A DNA stretch of 64,000 bases from NCBI GenBank assembly GCA_000503835.1, contig CP006914.1:379909-443908 (forward strand). Direction: 5' to 3'. The notes below the pieces were generated by a model. It was not told where the DNA came from and did not search any database. It saw only the letters and a program-made list of their open reading frames with translations. Source of the DNA: a candidate division WWE3 bacterium RAAC2_WWE3_1 (GTDB lineage: Bacteria; Patescibacteriota; WWE3; UBA101185; UBA10185). Shown piece after piece: positions 56 through 18,425 of the stretch (position 1 is the first letter of the stretch; each line of letters starts with the position of its first letter). The translations under genes were made by a program, and so were the position numbers.

Positions 56-2053
56 ATGAGCAAAGCTAAGCCGTACCTTCTCGCCGCATCACTTAGCCTG
101 ATACTGGTGTTTATTATCTTTCGCATATTTAACATAAACCCACTTTTGCCTCTCAATTACACCGGCGACGCCCTCGTCCATTACAACTTTGCAAAAAATA
201 TCGAAGCCACGGGATGGTGGGCGGTAAATCCGAGGTTCGGCGCACCGGTTGGACAAACACTCTACGATTTTCCACTTACCGAAAACACGCATCTTTTACT
301 CATAAAGCTTCTGATAATGTTGGGGCTTAACTGGTACGAAAGTGTGAATGTGTTTTTCATCCTATCTTTTCCTCTGGTCACCGTAGTTTCATTATTTGTA
401 ATGAAACAGTTCGGGTTAAAAACATATACCGCACTCCCGTTATCCATCGTGTATGCATTTTTACCGTACCACTTTCTACGGGGAGTAAATCACCTTTTTC
501 TCGCGGGTTACTTTGTTGTGCCGTTATCCATTTATTCGGCTTACCGTCTCGCGTCCAGCAATCCTATAAAACTAGCAGGAACTATCCTGCTCACACTGCT
601 AATTGCATCAAATGGCGCCTACTATACATTTCTTTCTCTCTTTTTTATAGTTTTGGGCGGTCTGTTCGGTTTATCAAAAGCGTGGAACAAAAAACTTCTG
701 TTTAACTTGATTGGATTCCTGGCAATAACCTCTTTTTTCTTTTTTATAAACTATCTTCCGACTCTATTGTACACACAAAAATACGGAATAAATTTGAACA
801 CTACTGTCAGACAGGCAAGCGATACCGAGGTGTTCGGGTTAAAGATTGCTCAGCTTGTCCTTCCCTTTGAAGATCACAACTTGAGCATTTTTAACAAGAT
901 ACAAAAACGTTATATGAACTACGGTTCGTCGGTAACAAATGAAAATCAGGATGCGGCCTTGGGTGTAACTGCCACGCTCGGTTTTATTTTTCTGATATTT
1001 TGGACCATTTTCAAACACCGACCGTTCAAATTAGAAGAAAATTCGGAGATGAAGCTGGACATACTGGGAGTTTTTAATCTAGCTTCTCTATTGTTCGCGA
1101 CGGTAGGCGGATTTGCCGTAATTTTGTCTACTTATATAAATCCGACTTTCAGATCTATGAATAGAATGAGCGTTTTTATTGCCTTTGTTTCACTTGTCGC
1201 CGTAGGTCTACTGATGCAACTCATTAAGTCACAAAAACTTGCGGTGTGGGCCTCTCTGCTAATTTTTCCGCTCGCACTTTTTGACCAGATTTCTCTTGGC
1301 GTAATGCAAAATTTTATCCGTGAACCTGCTGAATACCGCATGTTAGTAAAATACGCGGGTGAGATAAAAAGTAGGGTAGGGCAGAACGCAAAAATATACA
1401 CACTGCCGCTCGGACAATATCCTGAGGGCGGGGATAAAAAATTAATGCGCGTCGCCCTCCTCACCAACGGAATAGTATGGAGCACGGGAGCGGAAAAAAT
1501 GCGAGCGGGAAATTTTTGGCAGGAGCGTGTCGACCGACTTGAAATGAAACCTTTTCTGCGAAAAATTATCAGTGAAGGGTTTACCGGTTTACTGGTCAAC
1601 GTAAAGGAAATGAATCCAACAAAACTTGCGGAAATAGAAAAGGAACTTACCATAAAACCATTGCAGGACCAAAAAGGAGAGTATAGCTTTTACAATCTGA
1701 GAGCCTACGCCGTCTCTAATAAAATATCTTATGCACCTACAACTGTCTTTTATTATGTAGCCGGAAATTGTCTTTATGACACGGTGTCACTTTTTTATTG
1801 TGTGGACAAAGGAAGAGTTGAGTTTGAAAACATATCCGGCAATGAACAGGTCAGGATATTGAATCTGACATTAGAATTTCCTAAAGAAGAGGTAAAAAAG
1901 ATTAGCGAAAAAATAACGGTTCCGGCCGGCAAATCGCACTACTCTATAACCAAGGGCGCCGGAGATAGTGTTTTTCCGATTCCGACCGGTGTTGTATGGC
2001 CGATAAATATCGGCTACCCTAATTTTGTTATCCGGGAAATTGAATTGAAGTAA
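56..2053 (+). CDS. Polytopic integral membrane protein, possibly a glycosyltransferase-like (YfhO/PMT/ArnT-type topology); function not assignable
   Basis: 665-aa ORF with many hydrophobic helices in the N-terminal 400 aa and a soluble C-terminal domain; no catalytic motif recognised. Confidence 0.5.
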   Translation: MSKAKPYLLAASLSLILVFIIFRIFNINPLLPLNYTGDALVHYNFAKNIEATGWWAVNPRFGAPVGQTLYDFPLTENTHLLLIKLLIMLGLNWYESVNVFFILSFPLVTVVSLFVMKQFGLKTYTALPLSIVYAFLPYHFLRGVNHLFLAGYFVVPLSIYSAYRLASSNPIKLAGTILLTLLIASNGAYYTFLSLFFIVLGGLFGLSKAWNKKLLFNLIGFLAITSFFFFINYLPTLLYTQKYGINLNTTVRQASDTEVFGLKIAQLVLPFEDHNLSIFNKIQKRYMNYGSSVTNENQDAALGVTATLGFIFLIFWTIFKHRPFKLEENSEMKLDILGVFNLASLLFATVGGFAVILSTYINPTFRSMNRMSVFIAFVSLVAVGLLMQLIKSQKLAVWASLLIFPLALFDQISLGVMQNFIREPAEYRMLVKYAGEIKSRVGQNAKIYTLPLGQYPEGGDKKLMRVALLTNGIVWSTGAEKMRAGNFWQERVDRLEMKPFLRKIISEGFTGLLVNVKEMNPTKLAEIEKELTIKPLQDQKGEYSFYNLRAYAVSNKISYAPTTVFYYVAGNCLYDTVSLFYCVDKGRVEFENISGNEQVRILNLTLEFPKEEVKKISEKITVPAGKSHYSITKGAGDSVFPIPTGVVWPINIGYPNFVIREIELK

Positions 2054-2892: not shown

Positions 2893-3588
2893 ATGGAACT
2901 CAGAATAAACAAATACATGGCACTCTGCGGATTGGCATCACGCAGAAAAAGCGACGAGATACTTCTGAGCGGAGGGGTGCGGATAAACGGTCGTCCTGCA
3001 AAACCCGGGGATATCGTCAACACCGAAAAAGACACCGTTACTTACAAAGACATGCAATTGACCCCCGACAATAAGCTCGAATATTACGCTGTAAACAAGC
3101 CACTCGGTGTCATATCCTCAGCTAAAGATGAGTTCGGCAGGAAAAATGTCGTGGATATGGTCAAAACTGACCACAGACTTTTCCCTATAGGAAGATTGGA
3201 CCGAAATAGCACCGGACTTATCATACTAACTAACGACGGAGATCTTGCCCTTAAACTTACGCACCCCAGATATCATCTGCCAAAGGTTTACGAAGTTACA
3301 ACCGAAGAACCGGTTTCCGACGAACAGCTGGAAAAACTATCATCGGGAGTTTCCGTTTACCACGAAAAAACAATGCCTGCTGAAACCGAGCGTCTGGATT
3401 ATAACTTTTTCAAAATCACAATTTTTCAGGGTTTGAAGAGACAGATAAGGGAGATGTGTAAAAGTATAGGTCTTACAGTGCAGACACTTAACAGAACCGA
3501 AATCGGCCCGATAAAACTGGGAAATCTAAAAACCGGTTCATCCAGACCACTTTCCAAAGAGGAAGTAACGATGTTGAAATCCGACTAA
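2893..3588 (+). CDS. Pseudouridine synthase, RsuA/RluB family (S4 domain + PseudoU_synth_2)
   Basis: N-terminal S4-like RLNKYMALCGLASRR, catalytic-loop region FPIGRLDRNSTGLIILTNDGDL with conserved Asp (RLD). Confidence 0.85.
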   Translation: MELRINKYMALCGLASRRKSDEILLSGGVRINGRPAKPGDIVNTEKDTVTYKDMQLTPDNKLEYYAVNKPLGVISSAKDEFGRKNVVDMVKTDHRLFPIGRLDRNSTGLIILTNDGDLALKLTHPRYHLPKVYEVTTEEPVSDEQLEKLSSGVSVYHEKTMPAETERLDYNFFKITIFQGLKRQIREMCKSIGLTVQTLNRTEIGPIKLGNLKTGSSRPLSKEEVTMLKSD

Positions 3589-3642
3589 ACGTTCGGGAGT
3601 TGTTCATTAGCCAAACCGTCTTTCATTTTATATACTCATCAA

Positions 3643-4659
3643 GTGAAAAAGATATTTTTTATAACTATGGGGGCACTTTTGCTTGTTCTGGCTCCCATTT
3701 ATCTTTATATCAGGGTTTTTTCAAAAGAGAGCACGACACCCGCACAGCAACCTGAACAAAATGCAACTAAAGACAAAGAGTACATTTTTGAGGAACTTGG
3801 AATTTCTTTGGTCGTTCCGGAAGATCTGCACGTCATAAAATCTCCCGGTTTTAACGCAAGCACCGGAAAATTAGAATCTTACACTTTTTACATTCAAAAT
3901 TACGGAGACGAGAGCGGACCTGCGACAGGAGACTTTCAAATATACGGGCTATATCAACCTTCTCTGCCGGAAATTACTCCGGAAGATATTGCCGCAATAA
4001 AAGATGATGCCGAGAACTACGTCAATGTTAAGGAATTTTCGACAGGTGCGATACAGGGATACGAGGCCCGACAAAAAGGCGAACGTGCCAACTACGTTTA
4101 TTTCTTTCTTCTCAACGAGCGTATTTTGAAAATTGCCGTTTCTCAAGGAACCGAGATAAATAAGGCGGCGGCGGAAAAAATTTTAAAAACGCTCAAAGTC
4201 ATTGAAAAAATACAGACAATAGATGATACCGAAGCAACCGCGCCGGGGATGAGAAAGGAATATAATTTTTCCTACCCAAAAGGGTGGAAAGTGGCAAAAG
4301 TTAACAACGCCACCAGCGTAACCAGCCCCGATTATAAAATGTCAGGGGACGATACTGTTCTGGAGACAGGTATAGAACTGGCAGTTTATAAAAAGAGGGC
4401 CGATAGCGCTACCATCAACGAGGAATTGGCACTAAACCCGGTTACATTACAGATACCGAACAAAACTGACGCTGTTGTTGCGGGACAAAACGCAATAAGA
4501 TACGAGTACAGTTACGAAGGTGTAAATGCCATAATGACCGAATTTATTAAAGACGGCATGAGATATTCATTGAGATACAGGTTTACCGCTGAAGACAGCA
4601 AAAATATTTACATGGGTATTTACGAGGAAATGTTAAGGACTTTCGAATTTGTAAATTAG
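3643..4659 (+). CDS. Hypothetical membrane-anchored/secreted protein
   Basis: N-terminal TM/signal anchor (FFITMGALLLVLAPIYLYI), no recognisable motif. Confidence 0.5.
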   Translation: MKKIFFITMGALLLVLAPIYLYIRVFSKESTTPAQQPEQNATKDKEYIFEELGISLVVPEDLHVIKSPGFNASTGKLESYTFYIQNYGDESGPATGDFQIYGLYQPSLPEITPEDIAAIKDDAENYVNVKEFSTGAIQGYEARQKGERANYVYFFLLNERILKIAVSQGTEINKAAAEKILKTLKVIEKIQTIDDTEATAPGMRKEYNFSYPKGWKVAKVNNATSVTSPDYKMSGDDTVLETGIELAVYKKRADSATINEELALNPVTLQIPNKTDAVVAGQNAIRYEYSYEGVNAIMTEFIKDGMRYSLRYRFTAEDSKNIYMGIYEEMLRTFEFVN

Positions 4660-4763: not shown

Positions 4764-5945
4764 GTGACGATAACACAGACAGCAAGAACAGCTTTCCTGT
4801 CACTTCAAAAAAATAAACTCAGGAGCTTTCTGACCATGCTCGGTGTGATAATAGGCGTTTTTGCCGTAGCATCGCTGGTTTCGATAGTGAGAGGCTTCCA
4901 GAATTATGTAAAAAGCGAGTTTGATGCGTTAGGTTCCAATCTTATTTTCATAATGCCCGGAAAAATAGACTTTACCGGAGATCCTTCAAGGAATTTTACC
5001 GGGAACAAGCTCAAATACAACCATGTAGAAAGAATTCAGACGGATCTCGGAAACAAAATCAGCTCCATTTCGCCGTGGTACGAGCTCTCAAAAAATTTTA
5101 TTTATAAAACTAAATCATTTTACGGAGCGATTGGAGGAATAAACGATAGTGTTCTCAAGTTGTTTAACCTTAATGTGGCAAACGGGCGTTTTTTCACAAA
5201 AGCTGAGATGGACGCCAAAGCGAAAGTAGCGGTAATAGGATCAAAAGTTCTGGAGGAATTGTTCAATTCACGCAACCCCATCGGAGAAAAAATACAAATC
5301 GACGGAACATCGTATTTGATTTTAGGTGTGCTGGAAGAAAAGAGTCCTAATTACGATAATATTGTTTACATCCCATACACCACGGTTGAGTCCGAATTCA
5401 ACATTAAAAATATCGGCTCCATAGTTATAAAAGTCGGTAGCGGGGAGGATATAAACAGTGTAAAGAATGAGATCAGGCTCTCACTCTTGAAAGAACTAAA
5501 AGACGAAGAATTCTCGGTCTCAACACAGGAGGATCTTTTACAGAGAATAAACGATATTTTAAAGATAATAGAGAGCGGACTGACGGCAATTGCTGCTATC
5601 TCACTGCTTGTGGGCGGTATAGGGATTATGAACATCATGCTCGTCTCCGTTACCGAGAGAACCCGCGAAATAGGCCTTATCAAAGCATTGGGGGCGACCG
5701 GCAGGGACATAGCCCTCCAATTCCTATCCGAATCCGTATTTATAAGTTTCACCGGCGGATTAATAGGATTAGCGGCCGCGTGGATTGCCACACTTGTTGC
5801 AAAAACGTGGATACCTGCGGAGATACCTTTATGGGCAGTTGTGGTATCTTTGGGTTTTTCACTTCTTGTCGGAATCGGCTTCGGAACTTATCCTGCAATT
5901 AAGGCCGGAAAAAAGGACCCGATAGTTGCCCTTAGATATGAATAA
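4764..5945 (+). CDS. ABC transporter permease, MacB/FtsX family (MacB_PCD + FtsX domains)
   Basis: N-terminal TM, large periplasmic domain, three C-terminal TM helices with FtsX-type region (TERTREIGLIKALGATGRDI); no cognate ATPase gene adjacent. Confidence 0.8.
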   Translation: MTITQTARTAFLSLQKNKLRSFLTMLGVIIGVFAVASLVSIVRGFQNYVKSEFDALGSNLIFIMPGKIDFTGDPSRNFTGNKLKYNHVERIQTDLGNKISSISPWYELSKNFIYKTKSFYGAIGGINDSVLKLFNLNVANGRFFTKAEMDAKAKVAVIGSKVLEELFNSRNPIGEKIQIDGTSYLILGVLEEKSPNYDNIVYIPYTTVESEFNIKNIGSIVIKVGSGEDINSVKNEIRLSLLKELKDEEFSVSTQEDLLQRINDILKIIESGLTAIAAISLLVGGIGIMNIMLVSVTERTREIGLIKALGATGRDIALQFLSESVFISFTGGLIGLAAAWIATLVAKTWIPAEIPLWAVVVSLGFSLLVGIGFGTYPAIKAGKKDPIVALRYE

Positions 5946-7295: not shown

Positions 7296-7372
7296 CGGGG
7301 TGTAGCTCAGTTGGCTAGAGTGCACGGTTTGGGACCGTGAGGCCGCAGGTTCGAGTCCTGTCACCCCGACCA
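7296..7372 (+). tRNA. tRNA-Pro (anticodon UGG), CCA encoded
   Basis: Hand-folded cloverleaf: acceptor CGGGGTG/CACCCCG, anticodon stem CACGG/CCGTG, loop TTTGGGA, T-loop TTCGAGT, 3' ACCA. Confidence 0.85.
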
Positions 7373-7502: not shown

Positions 7503-7874
7503 ATGAAACCACAGAAAATATCCAACGGATTTTTAAGATTCCTGGTAGTGGTATTATCCCTAGTACTTTATTTCTTAAAGGTATCTCTTTCTGGTGCTTA
7601 CGCAGAAGAAATAGGGGCATTGCTCTTTGGGATATTGCTGTGTGGAGTAATTATATACTACCCAATAAGTTACAGATCAAAAGAAACTCCAAAAGAGACG
7701 CGGGTAAATAGACAGCTTAAAACCATGGTTTATGCTTCAGTGATATCCGTTGTCGACTTGTTTGTAGAAGGGAGCTACATAATACTCGGAATCATCGGGG
7801 TGATCTTACTCTACGTCAACATCCAGAAACAGAAACGGGAATTCGTAAATACAAATCCGATAAATAACAATTAG
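7503..7874 (+). CDS. Small 3-4 TM membrane protein (hypothetical; possible immunity/export partner of the adjacent RiPP-like pair)
   Basis: 123-aa ORF with GGAGG 5 nt upstream of ATG; hydrophobic helices FLRFLVVVLSLVLYFL, IGALLFGILLCGVIIYY, YIILGIIGVILLYV; convergent with peptide gene. Confidence 0.5.
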   Translation: MKPQKISNGFLRFLVVVLSLVLYFLKVSLSGAYAEEIGALLFGILLCGVIIYYPISYRSKETPKETRVNRQLKTMVYASVISVVDLFVEGSYIILGIIGVILLYVNIQKQKREFVNTNPINNN

Positions 7875-7951
7875 GTACATTAAAAAGAAAAGACCTGCCT
7901 ACAAGGATTGTGTCCCCATAAACAAGTCTTTCGTTGGTGTGCCCAGCTCGA

Positions 7952-8149
7952 CTAATTCTTACAGTCGGAACACTGGCACTGGCACTCGCAGTCACAGTCG
8001 TAGCAATCGCCGCCGCATTCGCAATCACAGTCTTTTTCGCACTGTTGGCTGCATTGCGTTGCGCAGTCATAATCGCATTCGCAATCCTTGCATTCGGCCT
8101 GGCTTCGGGAGCCCGCAACATGGATACCGAGAGCGCTCAGGGTAGTCAT
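7952..8149 (-). CDS. Cys-rich precursor-like peptide (65 aa; 19-aa leader + 46-aa core with 16 Cys and many Asp/Glu), putative RiPP precursor
   Basis: Sequence MTTLSALGIHVAGSRSQAE-CKDCECDYDCATQCSQQCEKDCDCECGGDCYDCDCECQCQCSDCKN; its start codon overlaps the stop of the upstream rSAM/SPASM gene (ATGA), so the two are translationally coupled. Confidence 0.6.
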   Translation of the reverse strand: MTTLSALGIHVAGSRSQAECKDCECDYDCATQCSQQCEKDCDCECGGDCYDCDCECQCQCSDCKN

Positions 8150-9489
8150 GTCTGCCTTACCTCCTTTCTTCGGATTTTTCTTCCCTCATACACGAGTATA
8201 GCGGGAAGTACGCCTTTCATCAGCTCGCACATAACTGATGGTTCTCCCAATGTGTTTGCGCTTAAAGCAAGCACGGCACATCCACCGCAGCACACATGTC
8301 GCCAAAGGCATTCGCCGCAAACCCCATCTCTACCTAAGGTTTCGACATGAGTTGCAAAAGGCAAGATGCCCCCTCTATCCAAAGCACGCCCCAGAGGCTT
8401 ATCAACGGTCATTTGGCAAAAGCAGACATTAGCTTCTGGGTCAACGGCGAAGTAGTTGCTACCCCCACCACAGATCCTTGTCCTGCTACCGTCAAACTGG
8501 ATACCGTTGAAGCTTAGTCTTGGAAGCTCGTTGTCAGGAAGTAGGCTGACTTGTTCCAAGAATGCAACCATCTTGCTAGTAACGTGGTCTACATTCATGG
8601 TCAAACCCACGCCGTGCTCGTAATCCCGGGACAGGCTTAGACTGAGTGTTAGACCTTTCCCTCTGACATACTGCATTAGCTCCCAAAGCCCGTCTACGTT
8701 CTTATCAGAAATCGTAGTTAGAATGGTTGGTTTAATCCCAGCCAATATCAAAGTTTCGATTCCTTGAAGAACGTGCTCCACACTTGGTCGGCCGTCTGCG
8801 TACTTTCGGGCATCGTTGTAGCTACCAAGCCCATCAAGCGATACCATCACGGAGAAGCCTTTCTCGTTTAGGAAGTGGGCTTTGGCCTCCGTAACCAATG
8901 TACCGTTGGTGATTATCGCCAACCGGACCTTGACACCCAAGGGCTCTAGTTTAGCCTTTGTTTGGTCTACCAAGTAAGCAATTATCTCCGTGTAAATAAG
9001 CGGTTCGCCACCAGCAAATTTCAACTCTACTTCTTTAACCTGTTGGGCCTCTACATCGTTGTGTAAAGCGGTAACGATTGCGTCGCACGCTTCCTTGGTC
9101 AGTCTGCGTTTGCCTTTATGCACATAGCAGTATTCGCACCGCAGATTACAGGCGTCCGTAACATGTATCCAGAGAGCCACGGACTTTGCACGTCTGGCCT
9201 TGGCTTTCTCCTGCTTAGGAACCTTCTTACCAAAAAGCCCCTCTTCCAGGAGAAACTGGATTATGGCGTGTAAAGACTCTTCCCAATCAGTATCATCTCT
9301 TGACTGGAGAATTTCCTGAAGGGTTAAACCGTTTGCCAGTTGTTCGTATACGTACAGAGCCGCGTCTGAAAGTACAAATGCCTTGCCGGAACCGTAAGGA
9401 CTGTAGATCACCGCCTCACCATTTTGTAGGTTTAGCTTAATGTGACCTGACATGTCCAATAACAGTCCCTGATACGTCAGGTCTGTCAT
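8146..9489 (-). CDS. Radical SAM/SPASM-domain peptide-modifying enzyme with N-terminal PqqD/RRE-like leader-binding domain
   Basis: CxxxCxxC at residues 114-121 (ACNLRCEYC); C-terminal auxiliary-cluster Cys pattern C-x16-CxC ... CGECLWRHVCCGGC (Cx2Cx5Cx3C) ... C typical of SPASM; ~100-aa N-terminal extension (SGKAFVLSDAALYVYEQLANGLTLQEILQ) resembles RRE; GGAGAG SD 7 nt upstream of ATG. Confidence 0.85.
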   Translation of the reverse strand: MTDLTYQGLLLDMSGHIKLNLQNGEAVIYSPYGSGKAFVLSDAALYVYEQLANGLTLQEILQSRDDTDWEESLHAIIQFLLEEGLFGKKVPKQEKAKARRAKSVALWIHVTDACNLRCEYCYVHKGKRRLTKEACDAIVTALHNDVEAQQVKEVELKFAGGEPLIYTEIIAYLVDQTKAKLEPLGVKVRLAIITNGTLVTEAKAHFLNEKGFSVMVSLDGLGSYNDARKYADGRPSVEHVLQGIETLILAGIKPTILTTISDKNVDGLWELMQYVRGKGLTLSLSLSRDYEHGVGLTMNVDHVTSKMVAFLEQVSLLPDNELPRLSFNGIQFDGSRTRICGGGSNYFAVDPEANVCFCQMTVDKPLGRALDRGGILPFATHVETLGRDGVCGECLWRHVCCGGCAVLALSANTLGEPSVMCELMKGVLPAILVYEGRKIRRKEVRQT

Positions 9490-9793
9490 GATGATCTCTC
9501 CTTTCAGTTGTATTTTGATTGTTGCCGTAGTTATAGCATAATTGTCGTATAGAGTAAAACCGAATTACCCACATGACTGCTGATTACTGTAGTATAATGA
9601 CCTCAACGATTCATCACTTCAAAGAAAGGAGTAGCACCGTGGGTAGACTTAGTGATTTAGGTATTTACGTATCCAAGTCTGAGGATCGGCATTAAGACTC
9701 AGATTGCCCGGCGGACTGCGAAATACCCGGTGACTGCGACGAAGGGCAGCACCCGCCCCAATCCTAACAGCCTAATAGAAAGAAGGAGCATTT
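9490..9793. promoter_or_regulatory. Divergent intergenic/promoter region of the rSAM operon and the 283-aa gene, containing a direct repeat GACTGCGA (x2, 18-bp spacing) and a small hairpin
   Basis: GACTGCGA at 9714..9721 and 9732..9739; hairpin TCTGAG(9677-9682)/CTCAGA(9698-9703); SD elements for both divergent genes at the edges. Confidence 0.3.
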
Positions 9794-10645
9794 GTGTTTG
9801 TTTTAATGCACATACGCCCCATTTCTCGATATATGTCAATAAGTCTTGGATTAATAAATAAAAATAAAAGAATAAGCGTCACCGAAATTATCGATAGCTA
9901 CGTTAATTCGCTGAACTCTGTTTTCGTTAATTCGGAGCTAGAATCTTTTGTCTACTCCAAAGAAAAAGGAGTTGTTTCATTGTTATTTGAGGGTAACGTT
10001 GAGAATTTCAATACTCAGGACGCAGGTCTACTAATCCAAACAGACAATATACTTGATAGAGAAATCACAACCATAAAAGTAGTTCATGAGAACTCATACA
10101 AATCCAGACAAAATTTATCAAATAGGCTCTCGTTTCTAAAGAGGCTAGAATGCGGTTTTGTACTCCTGGAACATACCGCACTGATAGACGATGTTTCTAA
10201 GAGACCTCCGAGAAAAACTACAAACGGCAACCTCTATTTGCCTGTTGGAGCCATTACAACGTATTTCAATCCCGATTCAACTGATTCGCGCTATGCAAAC
10301 GATAGACGTGGGGTTGATTTCCGAGAGTCAGTTGATTCTCCAGATATTATTACCACCACAGATTTGTATTATTCAAGTTTCATTGATAACAAAAATTTGG
10401 ATGGACTAACTGCTCCAGACCAATGCGGTTTGCAACACTTTACTACAGTAGTACATAATGTCGACGGTAAGCTTAATATATCATTTTTGCAGAATCAGAA
10501 TGCTAAGTTAGCCAGATACTTTTTCGAACCCGAAATTGTATTTTGCAGTAACGATTTTATCCTAAGAACATTTAGGGGTATTAGGTACCCACAGCAAGAG
10601 ATTTCCCTAAAAAATAATTTGCGAAAAGCATCTTTCGAGGTTTAA
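9794..10645 (+). CDS. Hypothetical protein (283 aa), divergent from rSAM gene
   Basis: GTG start with AAGGAG SD 6-7 nt upstream; no recognisable motif. Confidence 0.5.
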   Translation: MFVLMHIRPISRYMSISLGLINKNKRISVTEIIDSYVNSLNSVFVNSELESFVYSKEKGVVSLLFEGNVENFNTQDAGLLIQTDNILDREITTIKVVHENSYKSRQNLSNRLSFLKRLECGFVLLEHTALIDDVSKRPPRKTTNGNLYLPVGAITTYFNPDSTDSRYANDRRGVDFRESVDSPDIITTTDLYYSSFIDNKNLDGLTAPDQCGLQHFTTVVHNVDGKLNISFLQNQNAKLARYFFEPEIVFCSNDFILRTFRGIRYPQQEISLKNNLRKASFEV

Positions 10646-10750: not shown

Positions 10751-11257
10751 ATGCCACGCAGAATATTCATCGGAATCAAACCCGACGACCACATAATCAG
10801 AGACATCAAATCCATGCACGAACAGCTAGCATTTCTGCCGGTGCACTGGGTTCCGCTCGAAAACCTGCACACAACCCTCATTCCTCCGTGGAAGCCGACA
10901 AACTACGAAAAAGATCTCGAAACGTTCAACTCGCTGAAAATAAAACAGCCATCGGCGCCCCTTACATTTACATCCGTTACATTTTTCAAACCAAAAAATA
11001 TGTTATGGGCAGTTGGACATAATTCTGAAACCCTATGCCCGATAATAGAAAACCTGCGTAACGCTTTTAATTTTGCTAAAGACGAAAGGGAATATTTGAT
11101 GCATATAACCCTGGCAAAACATGTTGCAGCCGAACTCAGCATTCCGGAAGTAAAAATACAGTGGCAGTTTGTCCCTACAGAACTAACTTTATTTGAGACT
11201 GTACAAACCAAAGGCGAAACACAATACAAAACCCTCTCTACTATAAGCATGACGTGA
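10751..11257 (+). CDS. ligT: RNA 2',3'-cyclic phosphodiesterase / 2'-5' RNA ligase family (2H phosphoesterase, LigT/ThpR)
   Basis: Two H-x-T/S-x motifs (HTTL and HITL) spaced ~80 aa, hallmark of the 2H superfamily; start taken at internal Met ([11 protein letters not shown]). Confidence 0.7.
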
Positions 11258-11270
11258 TATCATTGAACTT

Positions 11271-12212
11271 ATGAAAACAGTATTAGTAACAGGCGGCGCA
11301 GGATTTTTAGGAAGTCACCTTTGCGATTACTTAATTAATAAAGGTGAAAAAGTTATTTGCGTTGATAATCTTTTTACCGGAGATAAGAAAAATATTGAGC
11401 ATCTTTTGGAAAACCCCAATTTCAGATTTATAAACCACGACATCATTGATCCGTTGTATGTAGAGGACACAATCATCGATCAAATTTATAATCTCGCCTG
11501 TCCGGCATCACCGATTCACTATCAATTTAATCCAGTCAGAACTATTAAAGCTAACACCATCGGCGTTATAAATATGCTCGGTCTCGCCAAAACCCATAAA
11601 GCGAGGATATTGCAGGCTTCAACATCGGAAATTTATGGAGACCCCCTCGAACATCCTCAAAAAGAATCCTACCGCGGCAACGTAAACACAATCGGACCCA
11701 GAGCCTGTTACGACGAAGGCAAAAGGGTAGCAGAAACGCTTTTTTTCGACTACCACAGACAACACAATCTTGAAATTAAAGTCATTAGAATATTCAACAC
11801 ATACGGACCGCGTATGGCTCAAAACGACGGCAGGGTAGTATCGAATTTTATTTTGCAGGCACTGAGAAACGAACCTATCCAAATCTACGGTGACGGAAAA
11901 CAAACAAGATCATTTTGTTTCGTATCCGATCTAATAGAAGGAATGTATAGAATGATGAACACCGATGACTTTATAGGTCCCGTAAATATCGGAAATCCCG
12001 GAGAATTTACAATGCTCGAACTCGCAGAAAAAGTTATCGAGCTAACAGGTTCGAAATCGGAAATTATTCACAAACCGCTACCAACGGATGACCCTATGAA
12101 AAGAAAACCGGATATAACGCTGGCCAAAGAAAAATTAAAATGGGAACCTAAAGTACAACTGGCCGAGGGGTTAAAACAAACGATAGATTATTTTAGATTA
12201 GCCATCGAGTAA
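11271..12212 (+). CDS. UDP-glucuronate decarboxylase (UDP-xylose synthase), NAD-dependent SDR epimerase/dehydratase family
   Basis: [11 protein letters not shown] Rossmann motif, VDNLFTG, catalytic YDEGKR (YxxxK), strong resemblance to UXS enzymes. Confidence 0.85.
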
Positions 12213-12284
12213 ATCTCTAATCTCCTTAGAATCAATTTTTGTACATAGCAATTTTTTTATGTTATTCTTTTTGAGAATAGAAAT

Positions 12285-13085
12285 ATGAGTAGCTATCCCA
12301 AATTTTTTACAAAAGAAGGAAGAACTTTACGCCCTTTAAATATTCCCACGGTTGATGCTTCTTTTTCCAAAGAAAGAGGTCTTGATTCCATCAGTTCCTT
12401 GGTGTCGGAGAGCACCATTTTTCCGAATCATCCGCTAACACCGCGCAAAAACATACTTGAAACTATAAACACGAAGATAGAGCGTATGACAGCGGCCTTA
12501 CCCATTCAAAAATATGCGACCATGGGATTCGCAGTAGCATTAATAACGATTACCGGTATTACAGTTCACGCAGCAGTCGTCCCCCGAAAAATTTCTTTCA
12601 CGGAAGACGACGGTTACAACATTTATTCCTCCAAACCTCTTACCTACGATTACGCAGTTTCAAAGGTTAGCACGAAAGATTCAAGGGCAGAAAAGATCGA
12701 CGGCGTCTTTAACATTTATAAATGCCCTTTAGAAGGACTAGGCGGCAAGTTTGTAGAGGAAGCCGATAAATACGGTATCCCCTGGTGGTTAACAGCTTCC
12801 GTAGCGTTCAAAGAATCCAGCTGTGGCAAGAACACACCTACGGTAGACGGCCGGGAAAGCTACAACGCATGGGGTTGGGGAGTTTACGGTGATAACGTTC
12901 GTTCTTTCGACAACTTCGCCCGTGGTATTGAGACTGTGTCCAAGTACTTTTCCGACAAATTCTATTCGCGGGGTATTGAGGATCCCTGCGAGATTATGAA
13001 AGTGTATACTCCGCCCTCGGACGGTTCCTGGTGCCGCGATGTCGTTCACTTTTCGGAGGTTTTTGACCAGTACCGAACCCTTTAA
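12285..13085 (+). CDS. Membrane-anchored protein with C-terminal lysozyme-like (SLT/glucosaminidase-like) domain; paralog of next gene
   Basis: TM helix MGFAVALITITGITVHAAVV; C-terminal block YGIPWWLTASVAFKESSCGK...YNAWGWGVYGDN...YTPPSDGSW shared with 13152..13724. Confidence 0.5.
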   Translation: MSSYPKFFTKEGRTLRPLNIPTVDASFSKERGLDSISSLVSESTIFPNHPLTPRKNILETINTKIERMTAALPIQKYATMGFAVALITITGITVHAAVVPRKISFTEDDGYNIYSSKPLTYDYAVSKVSTKDSRAEKIDGVFNIYKCPLEGLGGKFVEEADKYGIPWWLTASVAFKESSCGKNTPTVDGRESYNAWGWGVYGDNVRSFDNFARGIETVSKYFSDKFYSRGIEDPCEIMKVYTPPSDGSWCRDVVHFSEVFDQYRTL

Positions 13086-13151
13086 TCTTTTCTAAAGAAT
13101 AACCCTATAGTATTTGACGGGTGAGCTAAATATGGTAGAATTAACGTTTGT

Positions 13152-13724
13152 ATGTGGAGAAAACCTCGGTTTAAACCGACGGTCATAGTCCTTTCCGCGC
13201 TAGTTTACGCTATTGCGGTACTAGGGGGAATGATCTCCACCAAAGCTGAGGCAAATGGAAAGATTTTAGCATCTTCCGGACAGGCCGAGACAGCTTTGGT
13301 TAAAGTAACTGTCGAGTATAAAAAGGTTAATAGGGAAGAGGTGCTAACAGCCTTCTTCGAAGACTTAAAGTCCCCTCTTAAACCTAATGCAAAGAAATTT
13401 ATCGAAGTTGCTGATAAATACGGGTTAGATTATCGTTTGCTGCCGGCCATTTCATGTATGGAGTCGACCTGCGGTAAGCGTATAATTCCCGAATCATATA
13501 ACCCTTTCGGGTGGGGCATTTACGGAAATACCCATATTGCTTTTGCTTCGTTTGACGAAGCAATCGAAACGGTGGGTAAAGGATTGGCTGAAAACTATGT
13601 TTCTAGGGGATTTGATACTCCCCGTGAAATAGCGCCGATCTACACCCCTCCCAACCACGTTAACTGGCTGAATGGAGTTAATTACTTCTATAGCAGGATG
13701 GAAACGCTGGAAGGACAAATTTAA
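13152..13724 (+). CDS. Membrane-anchored protein with lysozyme-like domain (paralog of 12285..13085)
   Basis: N-terminal TM TVIVLSALVYAIAVLGGMI; conserved block YGLDYRLLPAISCMESTCGK...YNPFGWGIYGNT...YTPPNHVNW. Confidence 0.5.
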   Translation: MWRKPRFKPTVIVLSALVYAIAVLGGMISTKAEANGKILASSGQAETALVKVTVEYKKVNREEVLTAFFEDLKSPLKPNAKKFIEVADKYGLDYRLLPAISCMESTCGKRIIPESYNPFGWGIYGNTHIAFASFDEAIETVGKGLAENYVSRGFDTPREIAPIYTPPNHVNWLNGVNYFYSRMETLEGQI

Positions 13725-13844
13725 TAGAAAAAACCGAATAGGGAAGGGCGGTTTAAGTACCGCCCTTTCTTTATGCTTTAATTAGGTGGTTTGGTTGGTA
13801 TAATATGGGAGCTAACTGGACTTAACTACGGGCTGGAAATATTT

Positions 13845-14099: not shown

Positions 14100-14720
14100 A
14101 TGGCAACACCTATCACTCACATAGTACTAACAGAAAAAGTTTTTAATAATCTATTTAATAATTTTAATAAAAAAGATTTTATAATCGGGACTAGTTTTCC
14201 AGATATAAGATACCTAGGAACAATAGGTAGAGAGAAAACTCATATTAATGTAAATAACCTTGTAGATCTAAGAGACAATAATCCATTCTTTGCAGGAATG
14301 AAGTTTCACACGTTAGTAGATAAAATCAGGGAAGATTTCTTACTTTCGAGAAATATCTATTCAAAATGTCCAGAATCCAAATACATAACTAAATCTATAA
14401 AGTTTGTTGAAGATAAAATTCTCTATGATAAAGTTACTAATTGGATTAGCTACCAAAATTATTTCGATAATTTACTACAGGAAGAGCTCGAATCAGGTGC
14501 AGGGAAAGAAGCTGTTTCTCAATGGCATGGCGTACTAAAGAAATATTTTGCAAAGAAACCAAACGAAGAAAGCATTCGTACTTTTGTTGCAGAAATCAAT
14601 TTACCAGAAAACGTAGCGACAGAGATACAAAATAACGTGAATGTGATTGAAAATATTCCAGAAATTAATATGTACGTAGAAGATTTATACAACACTTTTG
14701 AAGAGTTACTTAAAAAGTAA
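14100..14720 (+). CDS. Hypothetical protein (206 aa), strongly AT-rich coding sequence (islet gene)
   Basis: ORF immediately downstream of tRNA-Leu; composition visibly more AT-rich (~30% GC) than surrounding genes; no motif recognised. Confidence 0.5.
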   Translation: MATPITHIVLTEKVFNNLFNNFNKKDFIIGTSFPDIRYLGTIGREKTHINVNNLVDLRDNNPFFAGMKFHTLVDKIREDFLLSRNIYSKCPESKYITKSIKFVEDKILYDKVTNWISYQNYFDNLLQEELESGAGKEAVSQWHGVLKKYFAKKPNEESIRTFVAEINLPENVATEIQNNVNVIENIPEINMYVEDLYNTFEELLKK

Positions 14721-14821
14721 AATTAGTTCGCGCATCCTCACAAATGGTCCACCATATTTTCTGCATTGATACATCATCATATACAAAATAAAGATCGAAC
14801 TTTTTAAGCTATAATTAACAC

Positions 14822-15538
14822 ATGGTTACTAAAGGGATTACTGTACTGAAAAATATTATCGAAACTAATCCGCTATGGTATCAAGATGACCAAATAAAAT
14901 ACTTCATCAACTTATTCAATAAAAATACACTTACAAAGCGGGAAAAGTCAGATAAGAATAATTTTAAAACTTTATTGAAAGAGACTATCTTTTATATAGA
15001 TAGCAGTGGTTATAATTGGGATCAATGGCGACTGCCTATCGAGTATGCAGTAATACACCATACTTCAAGTTCACCAACAATAGGCTTGAAAGAACTAAAT
15101 GTGTTAGGACTGAGACTTTACATTCAACAGTATTTAACTGACAAAGATGTTAAAGATCAACCGCTTTATTCGGGACATTATTGGGTGGGACAACCCGAAA
15201 TTATAGAAAACATGACATTTGTTAGCTACCACTTTTTAGTAAGACCTAACGGTAAAATCATCCAGCTAACCGATACTTCTGCGTATCTATGGCATGCGGG
15301 AAATCTTGAAATAAATAGAAAATCTATAGGAATAGCGTTAGCTGGGAAATTTATAGATAAAGAACCAACTGCGGAAGCATTAATCTCAGCAGCAAGCATC
15401 ATAAAGAAATATAATATAGATGCGAATAAAGTCTTTGGTCACAAGGAGGTGATAAAGAAAGATCTACTTGGAGAGACAGAATGCCCGGGAAACTTATTTT
15501 CTGAAGGCTGGAAAAGTAAATTAATTTTCAATCTGTGA
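14822..15538 (+). CDS. N-acetylmuramoyl-L-alanine amidase (Amidase_2/PGRP-type, endolysin-like)
   Basis: Zn-ligand pattern AVIHHT ... WHAGN ... GHKEV ... ECPG characteristic of Amidase_2; AT-rich. Confidence 0.8.
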   Translation: MVTKGITVLKNIIETNPLWYQDDQIKYFINLFNKNTLTKREKSDKNNFKTLLKETIFYIDSSGYNWDQWRLPIEYAVIHHTSSSPTIGLKELNVLGLRLYIQQYLTDKDVKDQPLYSGHYWVGQPEIIENMTFVSYHFLVRPNGKIIQLTDTSAYLWHAGNLEINRKSIGIALAGKFIDKEPTAEALISAASIIKKYNIDANKVFGHKEVIKKDLLGETECPGNLFSEGWKSKLIFNL

Positions 15539-15641
15539 TAGCACAATAGTTCTCACTTGGTCGCTAGGAACCCACCACACATACTATCTATTCAGGTGAG
15601 TAATCCTGCCATCAAATCCGATTGACACTCTGTACATAGTA

Positions 15642-15911
15642 TTGTACATTCAAAACATGGACAAACTAATGTCGTTATCAAACGCCAGGGCATCTTTTCC
15701 CGAGATAGTCCGTAAAGTAAGCACTACTCTAAGTAGGGTAGTTATTACTGTAAACGGACAGCCAAAGGCTACACTGGTCAGCGCCGAAGAATTAGAATCT
15801 CTCGAAGAAACTGCAGAGGTTCTCTCAATTCCCGGAGCTAAAGACAGCATAATAAAAGGGTTGAAACAAGCTAAAAAGGGTACCGGAACCGCACTTTCTG
15901 ATATTGAGTAA
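15642..15911 (+). CDS. Type II antitoxin, Phd/YefM family
   Basis: Small acidic protein with Phd/YefM-like N-terminus (LSNARASFPEIVRKVSTTLSRVVITVNGQPKATLVS) immediately upstream (6-bp gap) of a RelE/ParE-like gene; true start may be ATG at 15657. Confidence 0.75.
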   Translation: MYIQNMDKLMSLSNARASFPEIVRKVSTTLSRVVITVNGQPKATLVSAEELESLEETAEVLSIPGAKDSIIKGLKQAKKGTGTALSDIE

Positions 15912-15917
15912 GACAAT

Positions 15918-16166
15918 ATGCAGGTAATTATTACCCCGACCGCATTAAAACAATATAAACACCTTCAAAAGTCCGACCAAACAAAAATTAAAAATAAAAT
16001 TCTTTTATTGGAAAAGCACCCCACGGAAGGAAAGAAACTAGCGGGAAAATTAGCTGAAGTAAGATCACTAAGAGCATGGCCCTACAGAATACTATATTAC
16101 GTGGGTAAAAAAGAAAGAAAAATATTTATCGTAACCATTGCGCACAGGCAGGGAGTGTATAAATAG
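15918..16166 (+). CDS. Type II toxin, RelE/ParE family
   Basis: 82-aa basic protein, C-terminal RelE-like region WPYRILYYVGKKERKIFIVTIAHRQ. Confidence 0.75.
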   Translation: MQVIITPTALKQYKHLQKSDQTKIKNKILLLEKHPTEGKKLAGKLAEVRSLRAWPYRILYYVGKKERKIFIVTIAHRQGVYK

Positions 16167-16223
16167 AGTAGGTGTTTTACGCTCACTGTTTCCTTCCCAC
16201 TAAATATCTCATACAATTAGCAT

Positions 16224-17498
16224 ATGAGATCTGCCACAAAACTTCCATCCATTTTAAAAAGCCCGGGATTGCCAAAAGCCGTCGTCAGCCCTTTCAACTC
16301 CTTCGCCATCTTAATAATGTTTATAACACTGGGTGATGCACTTATGGCGTACACAGTGCCGATATACTTAGACAGTGTCCTGCATAATACGTTTCTTATG
16401 GGATTAGTTATGGCTACGTCTTCCGCAGCCGGCCTACTGTTCGACTTTATAGTGAGCAAGAAATTCCGCACCAAAAATTACAAGTACTTTATGCACACCA
16501 CTTTTATTTTCGCCATATTATTTCCTGTGGCACTATTATTTTTCCCCCCGCACTTGGTATTTATTGTCATCGCTATGGCTCTTTGGGGAATATATTTCGA
16601 AACCAAGATATATGCCGAGTTTCATTTTATCGACCGACACGTACCTAAAGACGAGTACTCAAAATCGTGGGGACTAGTCAGCGTCCTTAATTCCTCGGCC
16701 TACTTTTTCGGATCATTAATTGCTACGTTAATAATCAGCATTTCGCTGAAATTCACATTCGCGACGGCACTTATACTATTCGGGTTGACTTACCTAATTT
16801 TTTCATTGCTGGCGATCAAAACAGAGTCTAATAAACCGGAAAACTTTGAAGAATCCTCCGGAATAACAAATTTATCTTTTAGACAGACGTTCCGGGTCTG
16901 GAGAACACTCCTAGGAAAAATTTGGCCGTTATGGACATTTAATTTTGTCATCACTTTAGTCGACGCCGCATTTTGGACCGTAGGTATAATTTTTTCCGAG
17001 CAAATGCGTGGCACCCATCCTGCAGGTGGTTTGATAATCACAGCCTACATGTTCCCACCTATTTTTATGGGATTCCTCTTGCCTAAAATAACGGCCAGAC
17101 TGGGTAAGAAAAAAACAGCTTTTATAAGCGCGCTCTTTGCTGCCACTTTTGTGCTGCTTTTTGGATTGGCTTCAAACGTCTACCTGCTTATCTTTCTGGT
17201 TTTTTCAGGGTCGGTTCTTCTTTCTATTGCAAACCCTGCCCTATACGCCGCCTACGAAGATTATGTTTCAAGACTGGGTAAATTTAATAACGACATGATA
17301 GGGCTGGAACAAACAGCGAGTAGTGTGGGTTACGTGGTCGGGCCGCTATTAGCCGGAGGGATTGCAGCAACGGCAGGTGTTCAGAATACTTTTGTTTTTA
17401 CCGGAGCGCTGCTGTTGGTAACCTCTTTGGTGTGCCTAGCCGTAGTCCCCAGAAAAATTAGAATGCCTCAGAAAGAGCTTGTCTCGGATTTGTATTAA
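16224..17498 (+). CDS. MFS transporter
   Basis: 424 aa, ~12 predicted TM helices in 6+6 arrangement with central loop (ESNKPENFEESSG). Confidence 0.75.
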   Translation: MRSATKLPSILKSPGLPKAVVSPFNSFAILIMFITLGDALMAYTVPIYLDSVLHNTFLMGLVMATSSAAGLLFDFIVSKKFRTKNYKYFMHTTFIFAILFPVALLFFPPHLVFIVIAMALWGIYFETKIYAEFHFIDRHVPKDEYSKSWGLVSVLNSSAYFFGSLIATLIISISLKFTFATALILFGLTYLIFSLLAIKTESNKPENFEESSGITNLSFRQTFRVWRTLLGKIWPLWTFNFVITLVDAAFWTVGIIFSEQMRGTHPAGGLIITAYMFPPIFMGFLLPKITARLGKKKTAFISALFAATFVLLFGLASNVYLLIFLVFSGSVLLSIANPALYAAYEDYVSRLGKFNNDMIGLEQTASSVGYVVGPLLAGGIAATAGVQNTFVFTGALLLVTSLVCLAVVPRKIRMPQKELVSDLY

Positions 17499-17584
17499 TA
17501 TATTTGACTGAAATACTAAAAATTCGTAGAATTCCATTGCACATTGATAACCTATAGAACACACATGAGAACACGGAGGACGAA

Positions 17585-18340: not shown

Positions 18341-18425
18341 TTAAAAGGGGAGTGGGATTTTGAAACTCCCACTCTCAAATTCATGACTCGATTATTTTCA
18401 TGGCCGTATTCCTTAGGAGGAGAAC

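Follow-up and report, generated by a model that had tools for sequence, protein, structure and literature searches.

The window (the whole 64-kb stretch of DNA that was analyzed) carries on its minus strand a gene for a 447-aa radical SAM enzyme, followed directly by one for a 65-aa Cys-rich peptide (Table 1). The stop and start codons of the two overlap, as the initial annotation had proposed: the tetranucleotide ATGA at 8146-8149, read on the minus strand, contains both the TGA of the enzyme and the ATG of the peptide. The peptide also has a Shine-Dalgarno sequence of its own, AAAGGAGGT, and the identical sequence is found in two related loci (L090 and L092). Together, the overlap and this Shine-Dalgarno sequence show that enzyme and peptide should be translated from one mRNA, and the hairpin and T-run downstream of the peptide mark the end of the two-gene operon. 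The operon lies within a sharply bounded cassette, in which GC is ~0.50 versus 0.38-0.42 in the flanks; blastn similarity to loci L090, L092, L007 and L001 begins and ends at 7877 and 9543, and the flanking sequences are unrelated.

Table 1 Features of the cassette and its surroundings in the window.
Feature	Position	Strand	Description and basis
Predicted RiPP cassette enzyme gene	8146..9489	minus	447-aa radical SAM/SPASM peptide maturase; ORF list
Enzyme domains	residues 1-~90; ~105-330; ~335-425		RRE-like; radical SAM barrel; SPASM-type region with 7 Cys
Putative precursor peptide gene	7952..8149	minus	65 aa; ORF list
Shine-Dalgarno sequence of the peptide	8159-8167	minus	in the enzyme gene, at its 3' end; read from sequence
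Terminator-like hairpin and T-run	7888..7932	minus	20 nt past the peptide stop
Conserved enzyme and peptide cassette	7877..9543	.	1.66 kb; blastn borders and composition profile
tRNA-Pro(tgg)	7296..7372	plus	context only; 580 bp from the peptide stop, with the gene of a 123-aa membrane protein between
Second precursor-like ORF	9639..9764	plus	divergent from the enzyme gene; in-frame TAA at 9693-9695; sequence
Partner gene (family C)	9833..10645	plus	270 aa; predicted Ntn-hydrolase / class-II amidotransferase fold

The enzyme belongs to the radical SAM superfamily: the Pfam Radical_SAM model (PF04055; E = 1e-17) scores 65.3 bits, above its cutoff of 29.5. Both Cys motifs recognized earlier are borne out, namely the CxxxCxxC of the radical SAM core at residues 114-121 (C114/C118/C121) and the C-terminal Cx2Cx5Cx3C (C391/C394/C400/C404), and in an alignment of 18 family members all of these Cys are invariant, as are C340, C358 and C421. 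The seven C-terminal Cys follow the SPASM pattern C-x9-17-G-x4-C ... C-x2-C-x5-C-x3-C ... C, which in SPASM enzymes binds two auxiliary [4Fe-4S] clusters. The Pfam SPASM model (PF13186) finds nothing in the window enzyme at E ≤ 1 and matches the relatives P0019, P0021 and P0033; in the predicted structure the C-terminal region superposes on the SPASM domains of CteB and anSME. The AlphaFold (AF2) model (pLDDT 82.6) has CteB as its top Foldseek match, aligned over its full length (5wgg; E = 1e-19, TM 0.73, 449 columns), followed by TigE, anSME, ChlB, SkfB and SuiB; the superposition on anSME covers ~370-380 columns, ~75 fewer than that on CteB. A profile search of the PDB ranks the two in the same order (CteB, E = 4.5e-32; anSME, E = 8e-26). 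Among NCBIfam profiles the best is PapB (NF047865), which spans residues 105-409. Its score, 123.6 bits, falls far short of the cutoff (340), and the window enzyme is therefore not a member of the PapB family. The ranks below PapB are mostly peptide maturases, including those for nif11, CefB, DynA and SCIFF peptides (SCIFF maturase TIGR03974, 91.1 bits versus a cutoff of 425), and the enzyme reaches the cutoff of no curated NCBIfam equivalog.

What is the substrate of such an enzyme? One hypothesis is that no free peptide product is made and that the enzyme instead acts on a protein or on the precursor of a cofactor, in the manner of anSME, QhpD and MftC. The profiles of these three enzymes score 66-80 bits, anSME is a good structural match with the same radical SAM and SPASM fold and 7-Cys pattern, and QhpD also forms Cys-Asp/Glu thioethers. 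However, the 7-Cys pattern is common to RiPP maturases and anSME and therefore does not discriminate. The initial annotation had singled out an anSME-like Cys pattern as a check on its reading; the pattern is indeed shared with anSME, but the anSME profile (TIGR03942) reaches 80.4 bits against its cutoff of 349, below the 123.6 bits of PapB, and anSME acts on sulfatase proteins, whereas no sulfatase gene lies near the cassette. Amine dehydrogenase and mycofactocin genes are likewise absent, both from the window neighborhood and from the related loci. Moreover, the enzyme has an extra RRE-like N-terminal domain that anSME lacks, cofactor precursors keep their reactive residues whereas the core described below is hypervariable, and the gene immediately downstream is always the peptide. 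On this evidence we consider a protein or cofactor substrate very improbable.

The N-terminal region had been annotated as PqqD/RRE-like, a claim that has support from the predicted fold and not from the PqqD profile. In the AF2 model, strands at residues 17-20, 26-29 and 37-40 precede helices at 42-52, 57-61 and 67-82, and this three-strand, three-helix order is the canonical RRE layout; the full-length superposition on CteB also takes in the RRE of that protein. The Pfam PqqD model stays sub-threshold on the window enzyme (E = 0.14), and on the N-termini of the family its best E is 0.0025, with matches in three of 14, below the cutoff. An hhalign comparison of the N-terminal alignment with the PqqD-positive N-termini of distant relatives gave no match, the N-terminal domain alone, used as a profile against the PDB, returned only noise, and the full-length hhalign alignment of the enzyme family to P0033 begins only at residue 73. 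Based on the RRE layout of the model and the superposition on CteB, with PqqD sub-threshold, the presence of an RRE is supported by the predicted fold and not by HMM.

The peptide consists of a 19-residue leader, MTTLSALGIHVAGSRSQAE, with an LxxLGI motif, and a 46-residue core with 16 Cys. The earlier count of 14 acidic residues in this core was essentially right: there are 13 Asp/Glu, or 14 if the Glu just ahead of the first Cys is included, together with five Gln. The core spacing includes CxC and CxxxC, and every one of the 16 Cys stands directly after Asp, Glu or Gln. No other ORF in the 64 kb has as many as four such [DEQ]-Cys pairs; the peptide is the only one with at least that number. 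Searches for the peptide family in databases were uninformative. Pfam and NCBIfam models, including that of the SCIFF peptide, gave no match at E ≤ 1, a word-indexed search of 5.8 billion clusters found no homologue, and phmmer, run exhaustively against 1.84 billion representatives, returned only two long, compositionally biased proteins. Since nothing usable came from these searches, conservation was established by reading the loci in six frames.

This reading placed precursor peptides downstream of the enzyme in 15 distinct loci. A peptide is present for every family member that was examined with a long enough contig and a close reading, except L105, to which none was assigned, and it is kept even in L108, where the enzyme is 30% identical, and in the Collierbacteria locus L111. 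Over a range of 30-91% enzyme identity, the position of the gene, the leader motif, which begins at residue 4, and the composition rule are all retained, which settles in its favor the conservation test that had been proposed for the peptide. The rule holds for 172 of 178 core Cys across the family, with P < 0.0005 against shuffles for most peptides, and the first Cys is preceded by Asp, Glu or Gln in all 15 peptides. In contrast to the leader, the core is hypervariable: peptides differ widely in core length and in the number of core Cys (7-17). Compared with the peptide of L001, nucleotide differences number 5, 6 and 30 at codon positions 1, 2 and 3 (24 synonymous and 11 non-synonymous codons), and this points to an ORF that is under purifying selection in its frame. 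As judged from sequence, the peptide has what generally identifies a RiPP precursor: a small adjoining gene, a kept leader, a variable core and co-conservation with the enzyme. Could the small ORF instead be a chance ORF or a GC-rich, repeat-like artifact beside an orphan enzyme? It is mostly missed by gene callers, and neither of the two large database searches above yielded a homologue. However, its position is conserved along with the Shine-Dalgarno sequence and ATGA overlap, and its codon changes are mostly synonymous. Peptides from the full range of enzyme identity have the leader motif in common, and the [DEQ]-Cys rule goes far beyond shuffles. By the conserved loci, the composition rule and the synonymous bias, such an origin is effectively refuted.

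The cassette occurs in WWE3 and Collierbacteria, that is, in genomes of the candidate phyla radiation (CPR). A profile scan of genome contigs with the full-length enzyme alignment relied on generic radical SAM patterns; among the matches listed, relatives had ≤36% identity in the best segment and 23-30% when aligned over most of the enzyme, and vaguely similar peptides were seen in two of 17 examined distant relatives from that scan. A search with a C-terminal sub-alignment brought out the true family, in metagenomes. The flanks differ from genome to genome, often with a tRNA gene close by. In the window, Rfam models detect three tRNAs and nothing else; the pair does adjoin tRNA-Pro as first described, with one gene between, and tRNA-Pro is one of several tRNA genes found beside the cassette in different genomes. 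There are no direct or inverted repeats or att-like sites at the borders, and no integrase was seen. The cassette is apparently mobile.

The initial annotation saw no obvious protease partner in the operon. This view does not stand, as a conserved gene for a protein of predicted hydrolase fold adjoins the cassette and an HExxH peptidase is encoded at many other loci. The adjoining gene belongs to a family (family C) that lies beside the cassette in six loci, the window included. Ntn hydrolases are defined by four alpha-beta-beta-alpha layers and a Cys, Ser or Thr nucleophile at the N-terminus. Homologues of the window protein begin M-[S/T]-[I/V/L]-S, and the window gene has an alternative GTG start at 9794 with a good Shine-Dalgarno sequence. 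From its fold and gene position, the protein is a candidate leader peptidase or amidohydrolase. In nine loci there is an HExxH...E peptidase, with H98, E99, H102 and E120 invariant in nine sequences; with an HExxH motif and a downstream Glu it counts as a gluzincin (MA clan), and the Peptidase_MA_2 model scores above its cutoff on the L001 copy (3193-3825; 37.8 bits). No copy of this peptidase was found in the 64-kb window by tblastn. A relationship between the two partner families was rejected by hhalign, and neither the 204-aa gene after the L008 peptide nor the 269-aa gene in L002 belongs to either family. The idea that an Ntn/glutaminase-fold partner deamidates core Gln to Glu was also dismissed, as Gln-Cys content is equal in loci of the two kinds. 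No transporter or immunity gene is conserved beside the cassette across the compared loci. Two candidates in the window, a MacB/FtsX permease (4764-5945) and the 123-aa membrane protein (7503-7874), which has a sub-threshold match to AgrB, were rejected as parts of the system since neither is conserved beside the cassette elsewhere.

Between the enzyme and its hydrolase-fold neighbor lies a second precursor-like ORF, with a Shine-Dalgarno sequence at 9625-9631, that reads MGRLSDLGIYVSKSEDRH, a stop, DSDCPADCEIPGDCDEGQHPPQS and a final stop. An intact 41-aa homologue is found at the equivalent place in WWE3 loci L001 and L093, and the in-frame TAA recurs in the independent contig L091. This ORF would be either a decayed second precursor or the source of a leader-only product.

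What modification does the enzyme install? In ranthipeptides, a thioether joins the sulfur of Cys to a non-alpha carbon of the acceptor residue, and several systems of this kind resemble the window cassette. The PapB/PapA system of Paenibacillus, which makes freyrasin, also pairs a radical SAM/SPASM maturase with a Cys- and acid-rich precursor, in which repeated Cys-to-Asp/Glu thioethers are formed. PapB joins Cys to Asp or Glu and takes Cys-Xn-Asp with n = 0-6 (PMC9413430), by way of a radical that arises alpha to the side-chain carboxylate (PMC10739248). PapA differs in having six C-X3-D motifs with the donor Cys upstream, whereas in the window family the acidic residue is directly upstream of Cys, Gln shares the putative acceptor position, and up to 17 Cys often occupy alternate residues; leader and lineage also differ. 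CteB, which matures the SCIFF peptide CteA (thermocellin), is the best full-length structure, including its N-terminal RRE, and the best PDB sequence match, and it has two auxiliary clusters in its SPASM domain. In contrast, SCIFF peptides have six Cys and a Cys-Thr gamma-thioether (PMC9389541), and their maturase model scores 91 bits versus 425. The polarity of the [DEQ]-Cys rule is that of the streptococcal beta-thioether RiPP NxxcA, whose short repeated motif has the acceptor ahead of the donor Cys; NxxcB joins Cys to an upstream Asn and tolerates Gln and Asp (PMC9389541). The likeness is one of motif polarity alone, as the spacing there is N-x-x-C rather than adjacent, and host and cluster context differ. 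The CefB 'Cys-every-fifth', CcpM and TIGR04463 families are also radical SAM/SPASM maturases with periodic Cys-rich precursors. However, their scores are 103 (for CefB, over residues 102-429), 83 and 75 bits versus 600, 500 and 525, and periodicity and residue rule differ. To our knowledge, the chemistry of these three types of family is itself uncharacterized.

These comparisons allow for three readings of the chemistry. We hypothesize that the cassette is a ranthipeptide-like RiPP system whose radical SAM enzyme makes many Cys-to-Asp/Glu/Gln thioethers, a reading by analogy to which we give somewhat better than an even chance. The ranthipeptide- or sactipeptide-type architecture proposed from the outset finds support in the PapB profile, the CteB fold and the conserved peptide. 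An alternative hypothesis is that the same pair makes sactionine bridges, from Cys sulfur to an alpha-carbon. The RRE-rSAM-SPASM architecture is common to sactisynthases, SkfB and StsB appear among the structural and profile matches, respectively, and alpha versus beta/gamma regiochemistry is poorly predicted by sequence similarity (PMC10288494). However, a strict Asp/Glu/Gln-before-Cys rule would have no obvious reason if any alpha-carbon could accept, the core is not divided into a donor half and an acceptor half as is usual in sactipeptides, and the nearest profile and the nearest structure, PapB and CteB, are ranthipeptide enzymes; sactionine chemistry is unlikely on these grounds. A third hypothesis is that the peptide binds metal or Fe-S through free thiols and carboxylates, as metallothioneins or metallophores do, with few or other radical SAM modifications. 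With 16 Cys, spaced as CxC and CxxxC, and 13 acidic residues among its 46 positions, the core offers an obvious set of metal ligands, no exporter is conserved, and the chemistry is left open by an enzyme that matches no equivalog. However, metal binding does not call for a leader, for a maturase with an RRE or for a peptidase that removes the leader, the core varies too much in length and in its count of Cys (7-17) for a defined metal site, and the nearest characterized enzymes use up Cys thiols in thioethers. We regard this reading, too, as having a low probability.

How would the ranthipeptide-like system work? The leader, with its LxxLGI motif probably forming a beta-strand, would dock onto the N-terminal RRE-like domain. 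At the cluster held by C114/C118/C121, SAM would be cleaved to a 5'-deoxyadenosyl radical, which may take a hydrogen from the side-chain carbon adjacent to the carbonyl (C-beta in Asp, C-gamma in Glu and Gln). The resulting carbon radical could then be trapped as a thioether by a Cys thiolate bound to a SPASM auxiliary [4Fe-4S] cluster. Because [Asp/Glu/Gln]-Cys is the invariant unit, the acceptor is most likely the residue directly before a Cys, and its partner would be either that same Cys or the preceding one. After up to 16 rounds of reaction, the acidic core would have become a ranthipeptide-like product dense in cross-links, and the leader would presumably be removed by the hydrolase encoded beside the cassette, the Ntn-fold protein here (9833-10645) and the HExxH gluzincin in many other genomes. 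A role of the peptide in competition or signaling is suggested by the combination of a hypervariable core with a conserved leader in an apparently mobile cassette. A bolder proposal is a new RiPP class in which each Cys closes onto the side chain of the preceding Asp, Glu or Gln, giving up to 16-17 tiny 7- or 8-membered rings in ~46 residues. A stand-alone Ntn-hydrolase-fold enzyme would remove the leader, and the system would spread among CPR genomes as a mobile unit of 1.66 kb, inserting next to tRNA genes; we entertain this as a doubtful but conceivable extension.

The overall architecture of the system is textbook. No description of this enzyme and peptide family was found in the literature by topic or by protein accession, and since no curated cutoff is reached and the peptide is missed by gene callers, it is fair to speak, as the initial annotation did of a candidate system, of a so far undescribed family in a class of peptide-modifying systems that is itself known. 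Neither gene callers nor curated models pick up the precursor family, so counts of such systems from genome mining are too low. Within a hypervariable core, the near-absolute [Asp/Glu/Gln]-Cys rule provides a sharp hypothesis of donor-acceptor pairing; if the enzyme does install ~16 cross-links in 46 residues, this density would rank with the highest known, and the enzyme would be of use in peptide stapling. We know of no Ntn-hydrolase-fold stand-alone leader peptidase in RiPP pathways, and if the Ntn-fold partner is the leader peptidase, it would be a new type of protease for RiPP biosynthesis. CPR bacteria, with their tiny genomes, are generally regarded as producers of few specialized metabolites. 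The presence of a conserved, apparently mobile cassette in WWE3 and Collierbacteria suggests that they do devote resources to modified peptides, which might serve in contacts with hosts or competitors.

The radical SAM enzyme gene and the peptide gene do overlap as the initial annotation had claimed, the enzyme stop and the peptide start sharing one ATGA (see the table of coordinates). Since this overlap is accompanied by a Shine-Dalgarno sequence inside the enzyme gene and by a hairpin with a T-run after the peptide, the two genes appear to form a compact operon. The multi-pass membrane protein that separates it from tRNA-Pro has a sub-threshold match to AgrB, a peptide-processing membrane protein (E 0.009, 15.8 bits versus a cutoff of 23), and its gene is not kept beside the cassette in other genomes.

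Coordinates of the cassette, its neighbours and related features in compared loci (L numbers denote contigs or loci from other genomes)
Feature	Sequence	Position	Strand	Remark
Enzyme ORF	window	8146..9489	minus	447 aa
Peptide ORF	window	7952..8149	minus	65 aa
ATGA	window	8146-8149		enzyme TGA and peptide ATG
Shine-Dalgarno AAAGGAGGT	window	8159-8167		within 3' end of enzyme gene
Long hairpin, then T-run	window	7932..7888		20 nt past peptide stop
Module borders	window	7877 and 9543		1.66 kb
tRNA-Pro(tgg)	window	7296-7372		
Membrane protein	window	7503-7874	plus	123 aa
Second precursor-like ORF	window	9639-9764	plus	GTG start at 9639, own SD, divergent from enzyme gene
TAA in second ORF	window	9693-9695		
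Upstream GTG extension	window	9794-9832	plus	13 codons, SD AAGGAG
Ntn-fold gene (family C)	window	9833-10645	plus	divergent, adjoining enzyme gene
Variable spot after tRNA-Leu	window	14100-16166	plus	
Small gene pair	window	15642-15911, 15918-16166		
tRNA-His	L001	1336-1412		
tRNA-Leu/Arg	L002	6713-6891		
tRNA-Gly	L004	4685-4759		
tRNA-Leu	L094	3772-3855		
tRNA-Leu	L104	953-1037		
KKS31541.1/peptide overlap	L001	6274-6329		56 nt
Second radical SAM/SPASM enzyme locus	L001	1613-3825		
Second radical SAM/SPASM enzyme locus	L111	22-2218		
Two RimK-like ATP-grasp genes	L111	4861-6762		after Ntn-fold gene

The radical SAM core and SPASM-type cysteine cluster originally proposed for the enzyme are borne out. 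Pfam places Radical_SAM at residues 109-273 (E 1e-17), together with Fer4_12, and gives no SPASM or PqqD match at E ≤ 1. In an 18-protein alignment C114/C118/C121 are invariant, as are C340, C358, C391, C394, C400, C404 and C421, which form the seven-cysteine SPASM pattern. All 88 NCBIfam matches are sub-threshold; PapB, a ranthipeptide maturase, scores highest (123.6 bits across residues 105-409; its cutoff is 340), followed in order by the nif11-peptide maturase, CefB (‘Cys-every-fifth’), DynA, the SCIFF maturase, CcpM, AmcB, anSME and QhpD. For this reason the enzyme is classed, by sequence, as a radical SAM/SPASM peptide-maturase relative outside all curated families. Among 5.8 billion protein clusters only ~18 close relatives were found (37-100% identity, the next ones at ≤31%), and all those with names come from candidate division WWE3 (Katanobacteria).

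The N-terminal PqqD-like RiPP recognition element (RRE) of the original description fared differently by fold and by profile. An AlphaFold model computed from the 18-protein alignment (pLDDT 82.6) has strands at 17-20, 26-29 and 37-40 followed by helices at 42-52, 57-61 and 67-82, and this modelled three-strand, three-helix arrangement is the RRE layout. Foldseek against the PDB ranks the thioether-forming maturase CteB first (5wgg; E 1e-19, TM 0.73, 449 aligned columns), with an alignment that spans the full length and includes the RRE of CteB; TigE, anSME, ChlB, SkfB and SuiB rank lower, and anSME, which has no RRE, aligns over about 370-380 columns. PDB sequences searched by profile give the same order (CteB 4.5e-32, anSME 8e-26). 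PqqD, however, reaches only E 0.14 on the window enzyme, with a best E of 0.0025 in three of 14 family N-termini, and profile comparisons of the family with PqqD-positive relatives were negative. The predicted fold thus supports an RRE that the HMM leaves unproven and at which the sequence only hints.

The peptide begins with a 19-residue leader, MTTLSALGIHVAGSRSQAE; the 46 residues of its core include the 16 Cys first reported, 13 Asp/Glu (14 when the Glu just ahead of the first Cys is added, so the initial count is essentially right) and 5 Gln. Gene callers mostly overlook this ORF and two very large protein searches returned no homologue of it, and its conservation was assessed by six-frame reading of loci encoding enzyme homologues. 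Peptides lie directly downstream of the enzyme, many overlapping its stop, in WWE3 L001/L093, in L007, L090, L092, L094, L008, L002, L006, L004/L107, L099, L103 and L104, in L108 (enzyme 30% identical) and in the Collierbacteria locus L111. All share the leader motif L-x-x-L-G-I-[H/Y/T/L/D] from about residue 4. When the window peptide is aligned codon by codon with four homologues, most differences fall at third positions; against L001 the changes number 5, 6 and 30 at the three positions in turn, and 24 codons differ synonymously and 11 non-synonymously. This bias indicates, at the sequence level, purifying selection on the reading frame, and the peptide is conserved in homologous loci. The annotated enzyme of L001 (KKS31541.1, WWE3 assembly GCA_000997905) ends in an aberrant C-terminus reaching into the peptide start; since sister sequences end like the window enzyme, a frameshift in the assembly is the probable cause.

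How might the enzyme act on such peptides? The cores vary from 7 to 17 Cys and from 26 to 62 residues, and Asp, Glu or Gln immediately precedes 172 of 178 core Cys. Shuffled cores reach about 40% of this value (P<0.0005 for most peptides), and no other ORF of the 64-kb window has the property. PapB joins Cys to Asp/Glu, accepting spacings of n=0-6 (PMC9413430), by a radical that arises alpha to the carboxylate (PMC10739248). With NxxcB the acceptor lies upstream of the Cys, and Asn, Gln and Asp are all tolerated there (PMC9389541). Because PapB and CteB are the nearest characterised enzymes, and given the PapB links and the upstream NxxcB acceptor, we infer that the leader would dock on the RRE-like domain, that the enzyme would form thioethers from Cys to the carbon beside the side-chain carbonyl of Asp, Glu or Gln, and that a neighbouring hydrolase would remove the leader. 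The PapB repeat is ‘Cys-X3-Asp’, whereas here D/E/Q stands directly before Cys; the presence of one such residue per Cys, always before the first (15 of 15 peptides) and sometimes with no D/E/Q/N beyond the last (3 of 15), favours ‘[D/E/Q]-Cys’ as the likely unit. No exporter is conserved around the cassette among the loci compared.

A second precursor-like ORF reads MGRLSDLGIYVSKSEDRH, meets an in-frame TAA after 18 codons and continues in frame as DSDCPADCEIPGDCDEGQHPPQS, in which the remains of a Cys/Asp core can be recognised. WWE3 L001/L093 have an intact 41-aa homologue at the equivalent position, and the TAA recurs in the independent contig L091. This ORF represents either a second precursor that was inactivated recently or the source of a leader-only product.

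The initial annotation saw no protease partner, which proved incorrect, since clustering of neighbouring ORFs revealed two recurrent families that show no relationship to each other. Family B (205-215 aa, invariant HExxH plus a downstream Glu, matching Peptidase_MA_2) occurs in L001 (two copies), L002, L004/L107, L007, L090, L092, L099 and L103, and tblastn found none in the window. Family C, of about 270 aa with a putative Ntn-hydrolase fold, immediately follows the peptide in L006, L094, L104, L105 and L111, and the window has a member. The system is thus an enzyme, a precursor and one of two kinds of putative hydrolase. Homologues of the Ntn-fold gene all start at its ATG (M-S-I-S); the in-frame upstream GTG, if used, would place a 13-residue propeptide ahead of the N-terminal Ser, the putative nucleophile, an arrangement seen in autoprocessing Ntn hydrolases. 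The RimK-like ATP-grasp proteins of L111 might add residues (e.g. Glu) to the acidic peptide or be unrelated neighbours. Directly upstream in L001 and L111 lies a second, unrelated radical SAM/SPASM enzyme (431-433 aa, N-terminal cluster motif) with its own Cys-containing acidic peptide and HExxH peptidase, making two RiPP-like modules in tandem.

Similarity of the window DNA to L090 (88%), L092 (80%), and L007 and L001 (about 68%) is sharply bounded, with unrelated flanks, and GC is about 0.50 within the borders versus 0.38-0.42 outside. L094 is syntenic, with flanks that match window 10751-13777 and 15621-21152 at 78-87% identity, but the identity of its cassette falls to 68%, the core differs markedly and the neighbouring tRNA gene is tRNA-Leu, not tRNA-Pro. 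Borders, flanks and this different site indicate that the cassette behaves like a small exchangeable module. At the corresponding spot the window has instead two unrelated genes, together with a small gene pair resembling Phd/YefM and RelE/ParE. In six examined loci (window, L001, L002, L004, L094, L104) a tRNA gene, differing between loci, lies about 200-600 bp from the cluster; this adjacency, far above expectation from tRNA density, suggests that the cluster inserts beside tRNA genes as islands do. A search for an integrase or flanking repeats at the cassette found none.

The system was first put forward as undescribed, and this holds with one restriction: in architecture it follows known RRE-rSAM-SPASM RiPP systems (ranthipeptides, sactipeptides). 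The enzyme falls far short of every curated cutoff and the searches made gave no match to the peptide, which on sequence criteria places the system outside every defined family; no published description of the family was found in the literature. By analogy its overall logic is textbook, with thioether chemistry predicted. What sets it apart is the [D/E/Q]-Cys rule, a core exceptionally dense in Cys, a partner with the putative Ntn fold, the cassette-like behaviour and an occurrence so far only in WWE3 and Collierbacteria. A hypervariable core behind a conserved leader points to a product of natural-product type rather than a cofactor.
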